From: Corallococcus carmarthensis
GTDB lineage: Bacteria > Myxococcota > Myxococcia > Myxococcales > Myxococcaceae
Length of the DNA stretch: 28,986 nt
Assembly: GCF_003611695.1 (NCBI RefSeq)
Contig: NZ_RAWE01000122.1
Location: 1 to 28,986, forward strand
Direction of reading: 5' to 3'
Below are positions 1,953 through 18,411 of this stretch, piece by piece. The stretch's first letter is position 1, and each line of letters opens with the position of its first letter. The notes beneath the pieces were generated by a model, which searched no databases, was not told the DNA's origin, and was given only the letters and a program-made list of their open reading frames with translations. The position numbers and the translations under genes are program-made.

Positions 1953-3590
1953 CTACGCGTTGCGGCGCACCATCGCGACGTCGTAGTGGCGGTCCGTCAC
2001 GTAGCCGTTCGCGGCCTTGCCGGGGCGGTACATGTTCCCGGTCTTGTCATCCACGTAGAAGCGGTTGTTCGGGTTCGTGTCCTTGCCCTTGCTGGCGTTG
2101 GTCGTGCCCGGGTCGTGGAACGTGTAGTAGGTGCGGCCCTTGTCGTCGACGCCACGGCCCGTGATGGTCACGAAGTGGTCCGTGAGGCCGTCCGCGTTGT
2201 AGGTCGCGTCCTTGTGGCTCACGCCCACGACCACCGGCTTGCCGGAGTCCAGCTGCTTGTCGATGTAGTTGCGGCCCTCGGCGGCCTTCTTCGAGTCCAC
2301 CGTCAGCGCGCCGACGCTGTTCTCGCTCTTGCCCACCTGGATGCGGCGGTCGGGGCCCAGGACGTTCGCGCCTGACGCGCCCGCCATCGCCGTCGCGGCC
2401 TTGAAGCACGCCGTGTCGCTCGCGGTGTAGCCGTGGCCGTTCTCGAACTGGCTGTAGTACGGCACCTTCACGTGCACCGCGGGACGGTCCTTGGCCCCGG
2501 CCACCTGCTGCGTGTCCGTGCGGTCCGCCTCCGTGGTGGGCTTGGAGGTGTTCGTGCCCGGCTTCGAGCCGTTGCTCACCGACGGGGGAACGACGCCCGT
2601 GTTGGTGTTGCCCGGCTTGGAGTCGTTGCTCACCGACGGGGGAACGACACCCGTGTTGGTGTTGGCCGGCTTCGTCGTGGTGGCGCCCGACTGCTCCTTC
2701 TTGAGCAGGGCCAGCGCGTCCTTCACCTCCGACTTGAAGCGGTTGGCCACGCCCTTCTGCACGTCCTTGGAGTTGCCGGAGAAGTGCACCAGGGTGCCGC
2801 TGGCGTTGGTGCGGCCGCGCTCGGCGTAGATGTCCTTGATGAGCTGCTCGTCGCTCACCTTCGCGGGATCGCGGCCGGCCAGCGCCTTCTTGAAGATGTC
2901 ATCCGCCGCGCCCGGGCCATGCTGCACGGAGGTGGACCAGGCCACGTCGCGCAGCGCCGCGGACCGCTTGTCCAGGTCGATGCCCGTCGCCTTCTTGATG
3001 TTGGCCGCGCCGGGGTCGTAGTGCGTGGCCTTGATGTAGTCGTGCTGCGCCTTGTCGAAGCCCTTCGGGTCCTTCGCCGCCAGCTGCTTCCACGCGGAGG
3101 AGAACTCCGCGGAGCCCGGCTTGCTGCCCGACAGCGCCTTGTAGAAGTCCGGGTTCGTCTTCTTCAGCGAGTTGACGAAGGACTGCGCGGACCCGTTCGC
3201 GGACGCGAACTGGTAGGAGCCGTAGGACACGCCGCCCTTGTCGCCCTTGCCCGTGGACACGGTGCCGGGGCCGCGCGCCTCGTACTTGCGGCTCAGCCCG
3301 CCCAGCTCCCCGCCGGCCGTGCTGGTGGAGGACGTCGTCGTGGAGGGCGTCGTCGCCTTCGCGCCGTCGGTGGACTGCGTGAAGCTGTCGCCCGACGTCT
3401 TCGTCCCCGCGCTCGACTTGGTGCCCTTCGTCTCGAAGCCGTCCTTCACCTTGAGCTGCTGGCCCACCAGGATCTTGTTCGGATCCTTGATGTTGTTCGC
3501 CTTGGCCAGATCCGCGACAGAGGTGTTGTAGCGCTTCGCGATCTCCGAAAGCGTGTCGCCAGAACGGACGCGGATGTTGGAGACGGTCAT
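1953..3590 (-). CDS. Multidomain peptidoglycan-directed protein: N-terminal LysM, a central domain with a GGxSYGxYQ motif (muramidase/GH108-like, tentative), two 18-aa tandem repeats, and a C-terminal C39-like (papain-fold) cysteine peptidase domain. No signal peptide.
   Basis: The LysM consensus [42 protein letters not shown] sits at the N-terminus. The repeats are [18 protein letters not shown] / [18 protein letters not shown]. The C-terminal part has [10 protein letters not shown]...[14 protein letters not shown] and a downstream DHFVTITG, giving a Cys/His pair in C39_2-like order. An AGGGGG Shine-Dalgarno-like motif lies upstream of ATG 3590. Confidence 0.7.
2557..2664. repeat. 54-bp direct tandem repeat (2 units, about 93% identical) inside the LysM gene
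   Basis: cccggcttcgagccgttgctcaccgacgggggaacgacgcccgtgttggtgttg is followed by a near-identical unit. It encodes the [13 protein letters not shown][D/G]SKPG repeats on the minus strand. Confidence 0.9.
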
Positions 3591-3781: not shown

Positions 3782-4816
3782 ATGTCCAGGATCCAACCGG
3801 ATTTCAAAAGTGTGGCAATACTGTTTGCCATTTGTGTCACGGGCGCAGTCCCAGACGCCTCGGCCCAGGGGCCTGAAGGACTCACCGGGGTCTATTCGAA
3901 CAAGCAGGGACGCCTGGCCATCGTCGAGGGGAGCAACGAGACGCTCGTGCACTTCTCGGGGTCGTTCCCGCAGGGCAACAGCGCGGGCACCTGCGATTGC
4001 GCGTGGGTCGTCCAGAAGAAGACGGCCACGGCCTGGACCCTGGGCCAGGCGGACGACCCGGAGCCCTGGACGCTGCGCGTCAATCCCAAGCAGTTCGTCC
4101 TGGAGTCAGGCCCGACGCCTCAGTGTTGCGGCGCGGGCTACCCGGGCAAGGACACGTTCGCCCGGAGCACGTCCAAGCCGCTGGGCATCTGCAAGGTGAA
4201 GGCGTCCAAGGCGGGCTTCCACGCGTCGGACGCGGCCAACACCGCGCGCAAGGCGTTCGTGGTGTCCGGCGACGCGGTGGAGGCGTACGTCGACCCGGTG
4301 GAGCCGGACTTCCTCGCCGCGCGCTTCCAGGGCCCGCAGAAGGCCACGGCGGGGCTGCTCAAGCGCGAGGACCTGGACTGCTCGGCGGAATCAGCGCCCA
4401 CGGCCGCCAAGGCGCCGGTGGCCGCGGACAAGCTCCAGCCTTTCGCGGGGACGTGGGTGGAGCTGACACGCCAGGGAAAGGGCTTCGTCGTCCTCAAGCC
4501 CTGTTCGGCCGCGACGCGCAGCTTTACCGTCAAGCCCGCGACGGGCGAGGTGGAGGTGCAGTTGGGTCAGGAGGCCACGACGCTCAAGGTGACGTCCGTG
4601 GAGCCCGGAAAGGGCACCGGGGCCTGGGTGCTGGGGCTCACGGCGTCGGACGGCAAGCCGGAGGCGCTCCAGTGGAAGACGGCCGACGCCGCGAAGGGCA
4701 CCGTGACCGTCACCAGCCCGGACCTCTTCTCCCAGAGCCACGACTACGTGCGCCAGGAGAAGAAGTCCGGCTTCCCGTCCAAGCAGGAGACGGGGTGCGA
4801 CGAGTACGAGCGCTAA
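3782..4816 (+). CDS. Secreted hypothetical protein with an N-terminal signal peptide and several Cys pairs
   Basis: AGGAGG lies 9 nt upstream of ATG 3782. The N-terminus MSRIQPDFKSVAILFAICVTGAVPDASAQ is signal-peptide like. The 344-aa ORF has GC3-rich codon usage. Its stop overlaps the stop of the convergent 4813..6381 gene. Confidence 0.6.
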   Translation: MSRIQPDFKSVAILFAICVTGAVPDASAQGPEGLTGVYSNKQGRLAIVEGSNETLVHFSGSFPQGNSAGTCDCAWVVQKKTATAWTLGQADDPEPWTLRVNPKQFVLESGPTPQCCGAGYPGKDTFARSTSKPLGICKVKASKAGFHASDAANTARKAFVVSGDAVEAYVDPVEPDFLAARFQGPQKATAGLLKREDLDCSAESAPTAAKAPVAADKLQPFAGTWVELTRQGKGFVVLKPCSAATRSFTVKPATGEVEVQLGQEATTLKVTSVEPGKGTGAWVLGLTASDGKPEALQWKTADAAKGTVTVTSPDLFSQSHDYVRQEKKSGFPSKQETGCDEYER

Positions 4817-6381
4817 CGCGCCCGTGAACGCCGCCGGGCGCGGAGAACCCCGCCGAGCAGCAGCGCGACGAGCGCACCGGACAAGGGGCCTCCCGCCGCC
4901 TGGCAGCCACCGTCATCGTCCGGCGTGCGCGGATCATCGATGGGCTCCACGGGCCTGCCAGCGTCGACGGTGCCCGCGTCCATGCCGGCATCGGACGTCC
5001 CGGCATCGGCGGTCCCGGCGTCCGTGCCCGCATCCTGGGCATCGAGAGGCGCGCAGGACGCGGCCTGACCGGTGGCCGCGATGCACAGCCGGCCATAGCG
5101 CCCCAGCCCTTCGTTCCGCCCGTCCACGACCGCGACCACCACGCGCGTGGCGTCGCCGGAGGCCACCTGGGCGCGCAGGGCTTCAGGCCCGTCCGCGGTC
5201 ACCACTCGAAGCACGGCGTCGTCCGTGACGGCCGCGAGGACCAGGTGCAGCGCGGCCGGGTCGGTGCCCGGCTCGGGCTCGAACGAGGCCCCCACGAAGG
5301 ACGCGCCGCCGGGGACCTCGAAGAGCCGCGAGGCCGCCGCGGCGACGCGCACGCGGTCCTGCGTGTGGGGCAGCGCCACCGCCGGCGCCGACACCGGCGC
5401 ATAGCCCTCCCCTCGCGCGTAGCCGAACCCTGGCGTCGCGCGCGGGCCGGTGCCCAGGTTCCACGTGGCGAACAAGGTGAAGGCCGCGTCGAAGCTGGAG
5501 GCGAAGTCGCGGCGCAGGCAGGTGTCCAGCAGCACCGGCCAGCGGGCCTCGGGCTGCCGCACGGACTCCTCCAGGAGCGCGACGAGCGCACCGTCTCCGT
5601 AGTGCTCGCCGAGGAACTGGAAGAAGAGCCCCGCGCCGTAGGTGAAGCTCACGCCCGGCCCTGCCGGGTCCAGCGTCAGGGTGCTGTCCGGGCTGATCAT
5701 GTAGCCGCGGGTGAAGTTCTCCAGGTCATCGAGCGCGGGCTCGAAGCGCTCGGTGGCCCAGACGGCGGTGCCTTCCGAGGCGATGCCGCCCAGGCCGGGC
5801 CGGTAGGCGGCCTGGACCGCGTGGAAGAACTCGTGGCTGGAGAGGATCTCCACGGCCTCGGAGTCGGACGGGTAGCTGTAGCCCGCGAAGTCGTTCTCCT
5901 GAAGCATGAAGCCCGTGCAGCGCGTGGTGCCGTCCAGGCAGGTCTCCTGGCGGAAGGCGCCGTCACCAATCCCCGCGAAGTCCACCAGGTACACGTCGAA
6001 GCGGCCATCGCCGCCGTCGTCCCCGGCCGGATTCGTGTCGTCGGGCGGCAGACGGAAGCCCAGGCCCGCGTAGAACGTCGCCACGCGTTCGTAGGTGCGC
6101 CCGACGAGCTCCACGAAGTCGGGCACGCCGCTGCCATCCGCGTCCGCCGCGGGCACGGCGTGCTTGCCCTGACGGGTGAAGTGGATGCGGAAGCGCCCGC
6201 CCGGCGACAGCGCGGACTCCACCGTGTCCTCGGGCAGGTAGCGCGGCTCGGGCGAGGTGGGCGAGGTGGGCCGGCTGGATTCGGCGGCCAACCCTGCCAC
6301 GGCCTCCCGCTCGTGCGGGAGGCCGCGCGGGGTCCCCGCGCCAGTCAGCAGCAGCAGCAGCGTGGGAACCCCGAGCGTCAT
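4813..6381 (-). CDS. Secreted HExxH zinc-metallopeptidase-like protein with a DAGT-repeat linker and a MYXO-CTERM-like C-terminal sorting tail
   Basis: The start is taken at the internal Met MTLGVPTLLLLLTGAGT (signal peptide). Its ATG overlaps the TGA of the upstream lipoprotein gene in an ATGA arrangement. The motif SSHEFFHAVQ (HExxH) is present. The C-terminus has the repeats DAGTDAGTADAGTSDAGMDAGTVDAG, then GGCQAAGG...LVALLLGGVLRARRRSRAR, matching the GGC / hydrophobic / Arg-rich pattern of MYXO-CTERM. The ORF track extends it to 6798, but that part overlaps the upstream gene. Confidence 0.6.
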   Translation of the reverse strand: MTLGVPTLLLLLTGAGTPRGLPHEREAVAGLAAESSRPTSPTSPEPRYLPEDTVESALSPGGRFRIHFTRQGKHAVPAADADGSGVPDFVELVGRTYERVATFYAGLGFRLPPDDTNPAGDDGGDGRFDVYLVDFAGIGDGAFRQETCLDGTTRCTGFMLQENDFAGYSYPSDSEAVEILSSHEFFHAVQAAYRPGLGGIASEGTAVWATERFEPALDDLENFTRGYMISPDSTLTLDPAGPGVSFTYGAGLFFQFLGEHYGDGALVALLEESVRQPEARWPVLLDTCLRRDFASSFDAAFTLFATWNLGTGPRATPGFGYARGEGYAPVSAPAVALPHTQDRVRVAAAASRLFEVPGGASFVGASFEPEPGTDPAALHLVLAAVTDDAVLRVVTADGPEALRAQVASGDATRVVVAVVDGRNEGLGRYGRLCIAATGQAASCAPLDAQDAGTDAGTADAGTSDAGMDAGTVDAGRPVEPIDDPRTPDDDGGCQAAGGPLSGALVALLLGGVLRARRRSRAR

Positions 6382-7430
6382 CACGGCAGGTAGGCCCACC
6401 GCAGGCGGATCGACCCCGCGCTGGTCGACGAGCTCACCGAGCCCGTCGTGTCGCACTGCGCCTGCACCGTGGGCTCGTAGTACGCCTTGACCTGCAGCTT
6501 CGCGTGACGGCCGTCCGCCAACTGGAGGATGTAGACCTTGTTCGTCATCTGGAGGCAGCTGGCGTAGGTCCAGAACGAGAGGGTCTGGGTCGCCGGGCTG
6601 CCCAGGCCATACTCGTCCCCGCTGAACGTGCAGGTGTCGGGGGTGTAGTAGTTCTCCGTCTTGAACTGCGCATCCACGGGCACGGACGTCACCGATTCGA
6701 ACGTCGTGCCGTCCGGCGTCTGCGCCACCGCCACGCACGACGGGCCGGAGACGCCGCTGTTGAAGCGGACGACGTACCGGCGCACCGCGACGTCCCACGC
6801 CGTCGAGCTCAGCGCGGCCTGGTCATCGATGGCCACCTTCTGGAGCCCCGTCGCCGTGAAGCGCGCGTAGGTGTACGACTCCGGCACGCTCGTGCCACCC
6901 GCGCGGCCGTCCAGGAACGTGAGGAACTCGCCCTGCGTCGTGCCCTCCTCGGTCACGCCACCGCTGGCGACGACGGTGCGGAGCCTGAGCCGGTCGATGC
7001 TCTGCTCCGTGCAGGCCACGGTGTTGCGGCACAGCTCCGCGCCGCCGTCCGTGGGAGTGCCCGCGTCGGTCTCCGTCCCGGCGTCCGTCTGCGTGCCCGC
7101 GTCCGTCTGCGTGCCCGCGTCGGTGCCCGTCCCCGCGTCCGTCTGCGTGCCCGCGTCGGTGCCCGTCCCCGCATCCGTCTCGCCGCCGGTGCCCGCGTCG
7201 TTCTCGGGCTCCTCGGGCGGCGTCAGGGTGCGCAGCTCGCACGTGTTGTCGGCGGTGCAGACGTACGCCTTGCCCGTGGGGGCCGCGCCCAGATCGCGGC
7301 AGTCGAATGCGTCCACGCACTCGTCGCCGTTGCATCCCGGCACCACCGCGGCCAGCGCGAGGGCCGCCAGGACCCCCATGCCGTACCACCGCGCGCCGCT
7401 CTTCCGGACCACCCCTCCAGGGTTGCTCAT
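6381..7430 (-). CDS. Lipoprotein with a Cys-rich N-terminal module, a TDAGT(Q/G) hexapeptide repeat linker and a C-terminal domain of about 220 aa with unknown function
   Basis: From ATG 7430 the N-terminus is MSNPGGVVRKSGARWYGMGVLAALALAAVVPGC, with a VPGC lipobox. AAGGTG lies 6 nt upstream. Alternative starts are GTG 7439 and ATG 7379. The linker is TDAGTGTDAGTQTDAGTGTDAGTQTDAGTQTDAGTETDAGT. The gene lies 85 nt downstream of the MVP stop on the same strand. Confidence 0.7.
   Translation of the reverse strand: MSNPGGVVRKSGARWYGMGVLAALALAAVVPGCNGDECVDAFDCRDLGAAPTGKAYVCTADNTCELRTLTPPEEPENDAGTGGETDAGTGTDAGTQTDAGTGTDAGTQTDAGTQTDAGTETDAGTPTDGGAELCRNTVACTEQSIDRLRLRTVVASGGVTEEGTTQGEFLTFLDGRAGGTSVPESYTYARFTATGLQKVAIDDQAALSSTAWDVAVRRYVVRFNSGVSGPSCVAVAQTPDGTTFESVTSVPVDAQFKTENYYTPDTCTFSGDEYGLGSPATQTLSFWTYASCLQMTNKVYILQLADGRHAKLQVKAYYEPTVQAQCDTTGSVSSSTSAGSIRLRWAYLP
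7051..7200. repeat. About 8 tandem units of an 18-bp repeat (gtgcccgcgtccgtctgc and variants)
   Basis: Seen directly in the sequence. It encodes the TDAGTx repeats of the lipoprotein on the minus strand. Confidence 0.9.
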
Positions 7431-7524
7431 CGTCTTCACCTTTCGATGCGGAGTCCCGCCGTCGTTCGAAAGGGACGATCTCTATTCGATAACGATTCTC
7501 ATTTTCAATATCGTTCTCCCAACT

Positions 7525-17301: not shown

Positions 17302-17460
17302 GCATTCGAACAACCAGCGCAGCGGGGGTCTTCCGTATTCAGACCAGAAAGACACGCGGGGGGCCATGACGGCGCCCGCTCTGCCCCACAAGGCTTGAGT
17401 GGTGAAGCTGGTTCAAGAAATCCAGCAACACAAACCGCTGCGATATCGACTTGCACGACC

Positions 17461-18411
17461 ATGAAAACCCCTGAGAGACCTCATCGGAACCCGATGACCT
17501 TCATTGCAATGGTCATCGCTTTGATTTCCAGCCTCCCCAGCCCCGCGCATGCGCAGTCGTTCTGCTATTCGAACAGCGGCTCCACTTGCTACTACGTTTG
17601 TGGTCCATCGAAGCCGACTGCCCCCTACGGCACGATTCACCAGTGCACATGCGATGGCTCCTCCATGAACCTCTCTCCCTACGGTTCAGAGATGGGACCG
17701 ACATGTAACAGCATCCTCAGCACTTGCCTGACCACCGGAACAGGCGCTCCATCGAGTTGGACAACTTGCCCCCAGTGGCCGTGCCAGCCCGGCCAAGCAT
17801 GCGTGACCTCGTCCGGGTGCAATGGCACTTGCGTATTCACGCCACCCTCCGGCAGTCAGAGCACCCCTCCTGTCGAATGCGTTGCGCCGCCTTCAAGCCA
17901 GGCATGTGGTAGTACGTGCTGCGGACCCGATCAAATCTGCTCCAATGAGACCTGCAAGCCGCGCTGTGGAGGCGCCCCGTATGACCCGGCAACCCAGTGC
18001 TGTGAAAGCCAGGAGGTCTTGTCAAAGCTCCAGATAGCGGATCTGTCCAAGTGTCCCCATCGCACTGCCAGGCCCGGCTGGGATCCCAATGATCCCAGCA
18101 ACCTCAATGCCTGTGGCCCATCAGGGTCGAAACTCCCGGTTCCCGACTCCTACGGAGCGGCTGACTTCCGACCCGGCTGCAACGCGCACGACGCCTGCTA
18201 CGGGACCTGCAACAACAACAAGCTCATTTGTGACACAGGCATGCACAGCGCACTGGAGGCGTCCTGCAAGAGTGCCTACAGCAACTCCTCCATGGCCATT
18301 CAGAGGTCCCGCTGCTTGAAGGTCGCCGCTGTCTACGCTGTCTCGGTGATAGCTGGAGGGGGTACCGCGTACGACAACGCCCAGAAGGCAGCGTGCATTT
18401 GTTGTCCCTGA
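17461..18411 (+). CDS. Secreted Cys-rich protein with a C-terminal phospholipase-A2-like domain (tentative)
   Basis: The signal peptide is MKTPERPHRNPMTFIAMVIALISSLPSPAHAQS; an alternative ATG lies at 17494. There are more than 30 Cys residues. The C-terminus has GCNAHDACYGTCN...C...C...AAVYAVSVIAGGG, i.e. the HD-x-x-Y catalytic dyad pattern of secreted and prokaryotic PLA2s. The gene is lower in GC than its neighbours. Confidence 0.55.
   Translation: MKTPERPHRNPMTFIAMVIALISSLPSPAHAQSFCYSNSGSTCYYVCGPSKPTAPYGTIHQCTCDGSSMNLSPYGSEMGPTCNSILSTCLTTGTGAPSSWTTCPQWPCQPGQACVTSSGCNGTCVFTPPSGSQSTPPVECVAPPSSQACGSTCCGPDQICSNETCKPRCGGAPYDPATQCCESQEVLSKLQIADLSKCPHRTARPGWDPNDPSNLNACGPSGSKLPVPDSYGAADFRPGCNAHDACYGTCNNNKLICDTGMHSALEASCKSAYSNSSMAIQRSRCLKVAAVYAVSVIAGGGTAYDNAQKAACICCP

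Follow-up and report, generated by a model that had tools for sequence, protein, structure and literature searches.

A conserved HmuY-family lipoprotein and putative metalloprotease gene pair of Myxococcota with a Fur-box-like site and generic DAG-rich linkers

Results

A co-oriented gene pair with overlapping stop and start codons

We analyzed a 28,986-nt stretch of the Corallococcus carmarthensis genome (contig NZ_RAWE01000122.1, positions 1 to 28,986; hereafter the window, with a G+C content of ~70%), in which three genes are co-oriented on the minus strand: a homologue of the major vault protein (MVP), an HmuY-family lipoprotein and an HExxH protein that belongs to the MXAN_6640 family of putative metalloproteases (Table 1). 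We report that the lipoprotein and protease genes constitute a two-gene cassette that is conserved across Myxococcota, that a Fur-box-like site precedes them in the window and that both of their products carry a linker rich in DAG tripeptides.

The start codon of the protease gene and the TGA stop codon of the lipoprotein gene share one base (GTGATGA), which is typical translational coupling of the two genes; the same stop/start overlap is found in Chondromyces. The protease starts at ATG 6381, as do its orthologues, and the listed 661-amino-acid (aa) open reading frame with an upstream GTG is misleading. For the lipoprotein, the ATG that matches the starts of its orthologues is most likely the correct one. 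Two substitutions (99.6% identity) separate the protease from the C. carmarthensis protein P0001, and their linkers are equally long. On the other side of the pair lies a convergent gene (3782-4816, plus strand), whose stop overlaps the region of the protease stop codon by 4 nt; its 344-aa product starts with a hydrophobic leader and matched no family in either Pfam or NCBIfam.

The HmuY-protease pairing is conserved and its linkage to MVP is local

When one genome per species was scanned with the protease family, 80 loci were recovered across Myxococcota. At 65 of them an HmuY gene lies directly upstream of the protease gene on the same strand (Myxococcia, Polyangia, Nannocystis and many metagenome-assembled genomes, MAGs), and at 8 further loci it lies within 2 kb. 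It is absent at the other seven, four of which have less than 1 kb of upstream sequence. The initial annotation had described both proteins as MVP-linked, and this linkage proves to be an accident of gene order in Corallococcus: an MVP gene is adjacent (within 10 kb) at only two of the 80 loci, in C. praedator and in a Myxococcaceae MAG, both Corallococcus-like. No MVP gene lies upstream of the C. sicarius pair, and the neighbors of the pair are wholly different in M. xanthus and Chondromyces. Since the HmuY-protease pairing is kept while its neighbors vary, the conserved unit is the two-gene cassette and the proximity of MVP is a local accident.

The MVP homologue itself (758 aa) matches Pfam Vault, Vault_2/3/4 and MVP_shoulder with E-values of 1e-20 to 1e-45 and is 92-93% identical to the homologues in loci L001 and L003; it stands beside the pair neither in C. 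sicarius nor in any other genus. A literature search found no paper pairing "major vault protein" with "myxobacteria".

Table 1. Features of the HmuY-protease pair and its upstream neighbor in the window
Feature	Position (nt)	Strand	Details
Major vault protein homologue	7525-9801	-	Pfam Vault repeats and MVP_shoulder; upstream neighbor only, outside the conserved unit
Fur-box-like operator	7488-7506	-	GAAAATGAGAATCGTTATC; in the 85-bp gap between MVP stop and HmuY start, within the AT-rich block cGATATTGAAAATGAGAATCGTTATCGAATAG
HmuY-family lipoprotein gene	6381-7430	-	ATG at 7430; alternative GTG at 7439; stop codon 6381-6383
Signal peptide and lipobox-like motif	7332-7430	-	..AAVVPG-C36; Cys codon 7332-7334; read from sequence
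Four-Cys module	7227-7325	-	ECVDAFDCRD..G..C..C; between lipid-anchor Cys and linker
Lipoprotein DAGT linker	7041-7202	-	8 DAG units and 1 DGG unit; 18-nt period, 36-nt higher order
HmuY-fold core	6384-7031	-	Residues 137-352; six invariant Cys
MXAN_6640-family putative metalloprotease gene	4813-6381	-	522 aa; NCBIfam NF045524.1
Catalytic domain, gluzincin fold (predicted)	5377-6279	-	Residues ~35-335; HEFFH (183-187) at 5821-5835; Glu203 at 5773-5775
Beta-sandwich domain	5074-5367	-	Residues 339-436; resembles pre-peptidase C-terminal and collagen-binding domains
Protease DAG linker	4957-5034	-	DAGTDAGTADAGTSDAGMDAGTVDAG; 6 DAG; within the disordered segment, residues 446-501 (nt 4879-5046)
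MYXO-CTERM-like tail	4816-4911	-	Residues 491-522 of 522; GGC (Cys493 codon 4903-4905), hydrophobic helix, RARRRSRAR

The protease model has a gluzincin-type catalytic domain

The protease matches NCBIfam NF045524 (MXAN_6640 family putative metalloprotease) with 236.9 bits against a cutoff of 140, over profile positions 1-289 of 290 and with the HEFFH motif intact. In its AlphaFold model (predicted local distance difference test, pLDDT, 82; predicted template modeling score, pTM, 0.78), a catalytic domain is followed by a beta-sandwich (residues 339-436), a disordered stretch (446-501) and a helix at the terminus. In the catalytic domain, H183, E184 and H187 lie in one modeled helix (173-191) and E203 in the next (199-213), and all four residues are invariant in 28 aligned relatives. 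An HExxH helix followed by a glutamate on the next helix is the gluzincin arrangement (clan MA(E)), and the modeled catalytic fold is thermolysin-like. The HEFFH motif had suggested a gluzincin-type metalloprotease in the initial annotation, and both the family match and the modeled fold agree with it.

Placing the domain within a peptidase family, which the annotation had left to a MEROPS classification, succeeded in part: the modeled fold is an M30-like gluzincin fold, and no sequence match to Pfam Peptidase_M30 was found in the 28 relatives (maximum E-value 10, with the HMMER filters dropping most matches above ~0.1). Pfam gave no model for the protease itself beyond sub-threshold matches to DUF5700 and DUF6055, and the protease family profile had no match in the PDB by sequence at E ≤ 1. 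The protein is probably a zinc endopeptidase with a gluzincin fold nearest to family M30, and its enzymatic activity is inferred.

A probable MYXO-CTERM tail on the protease

The protease ends in a tripartite tail of the kind that defines MYXO-CTERM proteins and their sorting pathway (PMC11980579; Haft preprint, bioRxiv 10.1101/2023.06.07.544157). Its Gly492-Cys493 pair is invariant in all 28 aligned relatives and is followed by the hydrophobic stretch GPLSGALVALLLGGVL, which holds no charged residue and a single proline at its start, and then by RARRRSRAR. AlphaFold 2 models a helix at residues 503-521, and the tail sits at the extreme C-terminus, with the protein ending inside the basic cluster. 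The annotation's designation of this tail as MYXO-CTERM-like is borne out by every one of these sequence features but not by the profile scores, which count against it: TIGR03901.2 gives 15.3 bits where 20 are required, and TIGR03382 gives 15.4 bits against a cutoff of 15.85. The profile evidence, on which the annotation had staked the claim, is divided, with this tail below the cutoff and 15 of the 28 relatives matching TIGR03901.2 at E ≤ 0.05 (best E-value 1.4e-6). A tail of cysteine, hydrophobic stretch and basic cluster is present in 108 of 120 protease relatives, and NCBI or JGI give several of the relatives MYXO-CTERM names. Given these matches, names and tails among the relatives, the protease is a probable member of the MYXO-CTERM group despite its score, and processing of the tail is predicted.

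The same tail could also be read as a simple membrane anchor or stop-transfer helix that would hold the enzyme in the inner membrane, facing the periplasm. We consider this improbable: the sub-cutoff scores on both models and the proline at the start of the hydrophobic stretch would fit it, but a plain anchor requires no cysteine, and the Gly-Cys pair is invariant in 28 diverse relatives. The profile matches and MYXO-CTERM names of the relatives speak against it as well, and the authors of TIGR03901 describe their model as short and divergent, with membership requiring curator review.

At the other end of the protein, an N-terminal lipobox-like cysteine is present in 77 of 107 protease relatives (P0012-P0120) in addition to the MYXO-CTERM cysteine, which suggests, from the sequences, possible anchoring at both ends in most relatives. 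All 11 Corallococcus orthologues have TGAG or AGAG, with alanine replacing the lipobox cysteine, and no basic n-region (6331-6381, minus strand).

A lipoprotein with an HmuY-fold domain

The signal peptide of the upstream gene's product leads to a cysteine, Cys36, that is invariant in 25 relatives. Pfam assigns the protein to HmuY (PF14064, 52 bits, above the gathering cutoff), its core has the all-beta HmuY fold, and a profile of the lipoprotein family finds solved HmuY homologues with E-values of 2.4e-13 to 8e-7. The initial annotation had recognised neither this homology nor the Fur box described below.

The four-Cys module that precedes the linker is modeled with a pLDDT of 78-91 as one helix and a beta-hairpin, and is covered by no Pfam or NCBIfam model. 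It is common to otherwise unrelated Myxococcaceae lipoproteins with TolB/PD40, DUF4397 or lamin-tail domains. An exhaustive HMMER search with the 40-residue module returned eight matches, three of them spurious (FG-GAP repeat proteins without the cysteines), making the module a narrow Myxococcaceae feature and not a broad family.

DAG-rich linkers are predicted to be disordered and act as generic spacers

The lipoprotein linker had been described as about eight tandem 18-bp units, a count that our analysis reproduces. Counting from GTG 7439, the sequence of residues 80-133 is NDAGTG-GETDAG-TGTDAG-TQTDAG-TGTDAG-TQTDAG-TQTDAG-TETDAG-TPTDGG, which contains TDAGT exactly seven times, NDAGT once and a degenerate TDGGA once. 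Tandem Repeats Finder detects an 18-nt period at 7060-7181 (6.8 copies, 76% matches), exceeded in strength by a 36-nt period at 7035-7181 (4.1 copies, 84% matches), and a repeat search finds seven in-register copies at 18-nt spacing. The DAG units of the protease are irregularly spaced (12/15 nt). They had been placed just before the GGC, hydrophobic and RARRRSRAR segments; six units do precede this tail, but not directly, as sixteen residues, RPVEPIDDPRTPDDDG, stand between the tract and GC-QAAGGPLSGALVALLLGGVL-RARRRSRAR. Translation of the entire window in six frames yields 46 DAG tripeptides, of which 14 belong to these two clusters, the only ones present, and the remainder are scattered singletons.

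We rejected the possibility that the two linkers derive from a duplicated DNA segment. They share only 20-nt stretches at 80-85% identity, no more than two sequences encoding the same peptide would be expected to share, and these give no evidence for duplication.

In the AlphaFold models both tracts (lipoprotein residues 76-129, protease residues 446-501) have a pLDDT below 50, with confident folded domains on either side, and each adjoins the terminus that bears the predicted lipid-anchor cysteine, N-terminal in the lipoprotein and C-terminal in the protease. Predicted disorder beside the anchored terminus argues that the flexible-tether architecture put forward in the initial annotation is right.

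The repeats also vary in number between strains, as that annotation had anticipated. Corallococcus lipoprotein orthologues have 4 to 9 DAG units, with the unit homogenised in each species (TDAGTT versus TDAGT[GQ]), and the linkers of two C. exiguus lipoproteins (P0122 and P0243), one having 4 units and the other 6, differ by exactly one 12-residue double unit. The stalks, composed of GC-rich codons, would lengthen and shorten by slippage. Farther away the linker changes in kind: lipoprotein orthologues have EPEPDAGT in Myxococcus and only a few acidic or proline residues in Hyalangium and Archangium. Among protease orthologues, those of Corallococcus have 2-8 DAG and those of Myxococcus have PDGG repeats, whereas Cystobacter and Archangium lack such repeats.

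Similar tracts occur in many other proteins. Some 30 unrelated lipoproteins of Corallococcus, Myxococcus and Archangium also matched the lipoprotein query, solely by way of the N-terminal module and TDAGT tract; among them are the TolB/PD40, DUF4397 and lamin-tail-domain proteins mentioned above. The linker regions of the lipoprotein and of the protease are hit by NCBIfam models for other MYXO-CTERM proteins, and the GH114 protein of PDB 9ep5 starts with (DAGTPT)5. Across 1.32 Mb of Myxococcota loci we counted 29 D[AS]G clusters, 7 of them in unrelated neighboring genes and most of the others in orthologues of the pair. We therefore conclude with high confidence that the DAGT repeat is a generic low-complexity spacer of Myxococcota and not a signature of this pair; as a common spacer that changes by slippage, it carries no information specific to the pair or to MVP.

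The initial annotation had implied a special link between the two proteins through the shared repeat. In its strongest form, this idea would make the repeat a specific signature (a binding, glycosylation or cargo-targeting motif) that ties the proteins to each other and to an MVP-centered system. Such a role is very improbable. The three genes are indeed adjacent and co-oriented, and no other DAG clusters occur in the 29-kb window, but synteny largely refutes the proposal, with MVP beside the pair at so few loci and missing even in C. sicarius. In addition, the Fur box between MVP and hmuY gives the pair a control region of its own, the MVP translation has neither a signal peptide nor a DAG tract, and the repeat, altered in Myxococcus and nearly gone in Hyalangium, Archangium and Cystobacter, is found in many unrelated surface proteins, leaving a special link unsupported.

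Beyond this phylum, Firmicute DUF1002 proteins (P0226-P0235, from Roseburia and other gut metagenome sources) bear (QTDAGx)n repeats that closely resemble the Corallococcus linker; convergent low complexity seems a better account of this than homology.

A Fur-box-like site precedes the pair

The sequence GAAAATGAGAATCGTTATC, upstream of the lipoprotein gene, agrees with the Fur consensus GATAATGATAATCATTATC in 16 of 19 bases. With up to three mismatches allowed, the window contains no other match, and none is expected by chance (100 shuffles). The AT-rich block before hmuY is kept in Corallococcus and Myxococcus loci, where the box matches at 15-17 of 19 positions, and is degenerate in Hyalangium. 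Independent support comes from M. xanthus, for which a supplementary table annotates MXAN_6641, the orthologue of the lipoprotein, as an HmuY homologue with a "putative Fur box" (PMC9548883). The same study found MXAN_6641 and MXAN_6640 up-regulated (log2 ~2.4-2.6) in co-culture with Sinorhizobium (S. meliloti), with an expression profile that parallels that of MXAN_1317, the HmuY of a separate, canonical heme-uptake cluster (MXAN_1316-1321) (PMC9548883). A full-text literature search found MXAN_6640 and MXAN_6641 named in no main text. Judging from these sites, Fur control of the pair in Myxococcaceae is likely.

Some Polyangia and MAG loci (L012, L040, L051 and L056) have AT-rich palindromes ~190-200 nt upstream of the HmuY core, such as TGAAAATGGTTTTCA in L012 and GAAAGTGAAAGTCAAAATC in L051. 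By their sequence, these could be lineage-specific Fur-type boxes.

Other genes in the window

A gene at 1953-3590 (minus strand) encodes a LysM domain protein with a VgrG3-like C-terminal domain resembling type VI secretion system spike effectors, and contains a 54-bp tandem repeat at 2555-2691 (2.2-2.5 copies), whose encoded peptide unit ends in (N)TNT. Overlapping genes at 9738-10892 and 10880-11644 (both plus strand) match DUF6310 (184 bits) and DUF5953 (385 bits), in a layout that resembles a toxin-immunity pair. The C-terminus of a 512-aa protein encoded at 16873-18411 (plus strand) scores 43 bits (cutoff 34) against the group XII secretory phospholipase A2 domain (PF06951), whose family is more familiar from animals.

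Discussion

Two stalked proteins with opposite predicted anchors

Read from the termini inwards, the lipoprotein would comprise an N-terminal lipid anchor, a disulfide-rich module, a disordered (TDAGTx)n stalk and an HmuY-fold ligand-binding domain, while the protease, once exported, would comprise a gluzincin domain, a beta-sandwich resembling pre-peptidase C-terminal (PPC) domains, a DAG-rich stalk and a MYXO-CTERM signal made of Gly-Cys, a membrane helix and an Arg cluster. We hold this architecture of both proteins with high confidence. With a lipid anchor at one N-terminus and a sorting signal at the other protein's C-terminus, both would be tethered to the outer membrane, from which they would hang on flexible stalks by opposite ends.

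We lean towards reading the pair as iron-regulated, surface-tethered scavenging proteins on generic flexible stalks. Iron limitation and predation would lift Fur repression, the protease would degrade prey or environmental proteins, and the HmuY-like protein would capture the released cofactor, heme or another tetrapyrrole, for a receptor encoded elsewhere. A role in heme or tetrapyrrole acquisition is the more tentative part of this reading, a possibility that we would not yet expect to hold. Similarly tentative is the full scheme of a phylum-wide, Fur-controlled protease and hemophore-like cassette, in which a MYXO-CTERM-tethered, M30-like gluzincin would strip heme or tetrapyrroles from prey proteins and a disulfide-rich HmuY variant without known axial ligands would capture them.

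Several observations, in addition to the sub-cutoff scores of the protease tail, pull the other way. As regards export, the N-terminus of the protease (MTLGVPTLLLLLTGAG) is hydrophobic but atypical, with neither a basic n-region nor a lipobox cysteine, so that export is plausible and not secure. As regards iron, AT-rich boxes outside Myxococcaceae are only about two-fold enriched over background, with no more than suggestive palindromes in a few Polyangia loci, and a scan of 4600-7700 found no promoter or terminator consensus. As regards the ligand, the heme-binding residues of P. gingivalis HmuY, His134 and His166, have no aligned counterparts in the lipoprotein. Its relatives have no invariant His or Met and no conserved His pair among 25 sequences (the Met of a C-x-x-M-T motif is common in them and not universal), and the ligand loops of P. 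gingivalis HmuY (3h8t) remain unaligned with the lipoprotein. The nearest solved relatives by sequence are the B. fragilis homologues HmuY-Bf-2 and Bf-3, of which Bf-2 binds protoporphyrin without iron coordination and Bf-3 binds neither. Finally, the genes called near the pair in M. xanthus and C. crocatus include no TonB-dependent receptor, and in the window the neighbors of the pair are MVP and an unknown secreted protein, not an hmuR-type receptor. On this comparison of sequences, heme binding by the lipoprotein is doubtful.

The ligand and receptor results would also suit a general extracellular digestion or predation module that has no heme or tetrapyrrole role, with an HmuY fold that binds something else, such as a peptide, a glycan or, in the part of chaperone or inhibitor, the protease, and with iron regulation that is indirect or absent. 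The separate heme cluster of M. xanthus, with an HmuY of its own, fits this alternative too, as do the strict adjacency and translational coupling of the two genes, which would also be expected of a protease with a partner or inhibitor. Against it stand the conservation of the Fur-box match across two genera and the parallel expression of MXAN_6641 and the heme-cluster HmuY MXAN_1317 across conditions; we regard a digestion module without tetrapyrroles as a serious but minority prospect. Iron-regulated scavenging at the surface is the reading that we carry forward.

Among myxobacterial surface proteins, DAG-rich stalks, MYXO-CTERM tails and HExxH proteases are routine; both proteins have already been named by NCBI, and their features are already in public family models. 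What this analysis adds is a conserved, uncharacterised HmuY-protease cassette and its link to iron. The pair offers a testable candidate for how predatory myxobacteria obtain iron or heme from prey proteins, and its predicted opposite anchors make it a natural system for studying lipoprotein versus MYXO-CTERM sorting.

Comparison with known systems

Among the closest known systems is MXAN_6641/MXAN_6640 of M. xanthus, whose protease is the type member of NF045524. This orthologous cassette agrees with that of Corallococcus in its gene order, in the Fur-box-like site that precedes it and in the DAG-containing linker of its lipoprotein, and both genes are induced in co-culture with prey (PMC9548883). 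Unlike its Corallococcus orthologue, the M. xanthus protease has an N-terminal lipobox-like cysteine, a PDGG-type linker and a GCGC motif, and the M. xanthus pair has no MVP neighbor.

Each half of the protease has its own counterparts. The catalytic domain is reminiscent of lugdulysin and hyicolysin (MEROPS M30, PDB 7bb8), although identity is only 14% and the Pfam Peptidase_M30 match is missing, and the C-terminal architecture of PPC-like domain, linker and sorting signal is unlike theirs; literature on "lugdulysin" yielded clinical mentions only. The tail shares with the TraA-type MYXO-CTERM/myxosortase (MrtX) system a three-part signal of invariant Cys, hydrophobic helix and Arg cluster in a Myxococcota host (PMC11980579), and differs from it in having GCQ in place of the generic GCGC motif and a sub-threshold score. 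The stalks correspond to the low-complexity linkers of other secreted bacterial proteins, such as the (DAGTPT)n tract of the GH114 protein 9ep5, in which the same type of repeat separates a folded domain from an anchor or leader; we see no difference of substance between that spacer and those of the pair.

For the pair as a whole, the working analogy that we propose is with P. gingivalis, where surface gingipains and the hemophore-like lipoprotein HmuY cooperate in heme supply (PMC10100897, PMC12106395). Gingipains are cysteine proteases that follow type IX sorting and are not encoded beside hmuY, whereas here a putative zinc protease gene adjoins the HmuY gene; and P. gingivalis hmuY is followed by the receptor gene hmuR, whereas no adjacent receptor is listed in the M. 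xanthus and C. crocatus loci. If the proposed cooperation holds, the myxobacterial cassette would be the equivalent, in predators, of the partnership between gingipains and HmuY, with another protease class, another sorting route and a new mode of heme binding.

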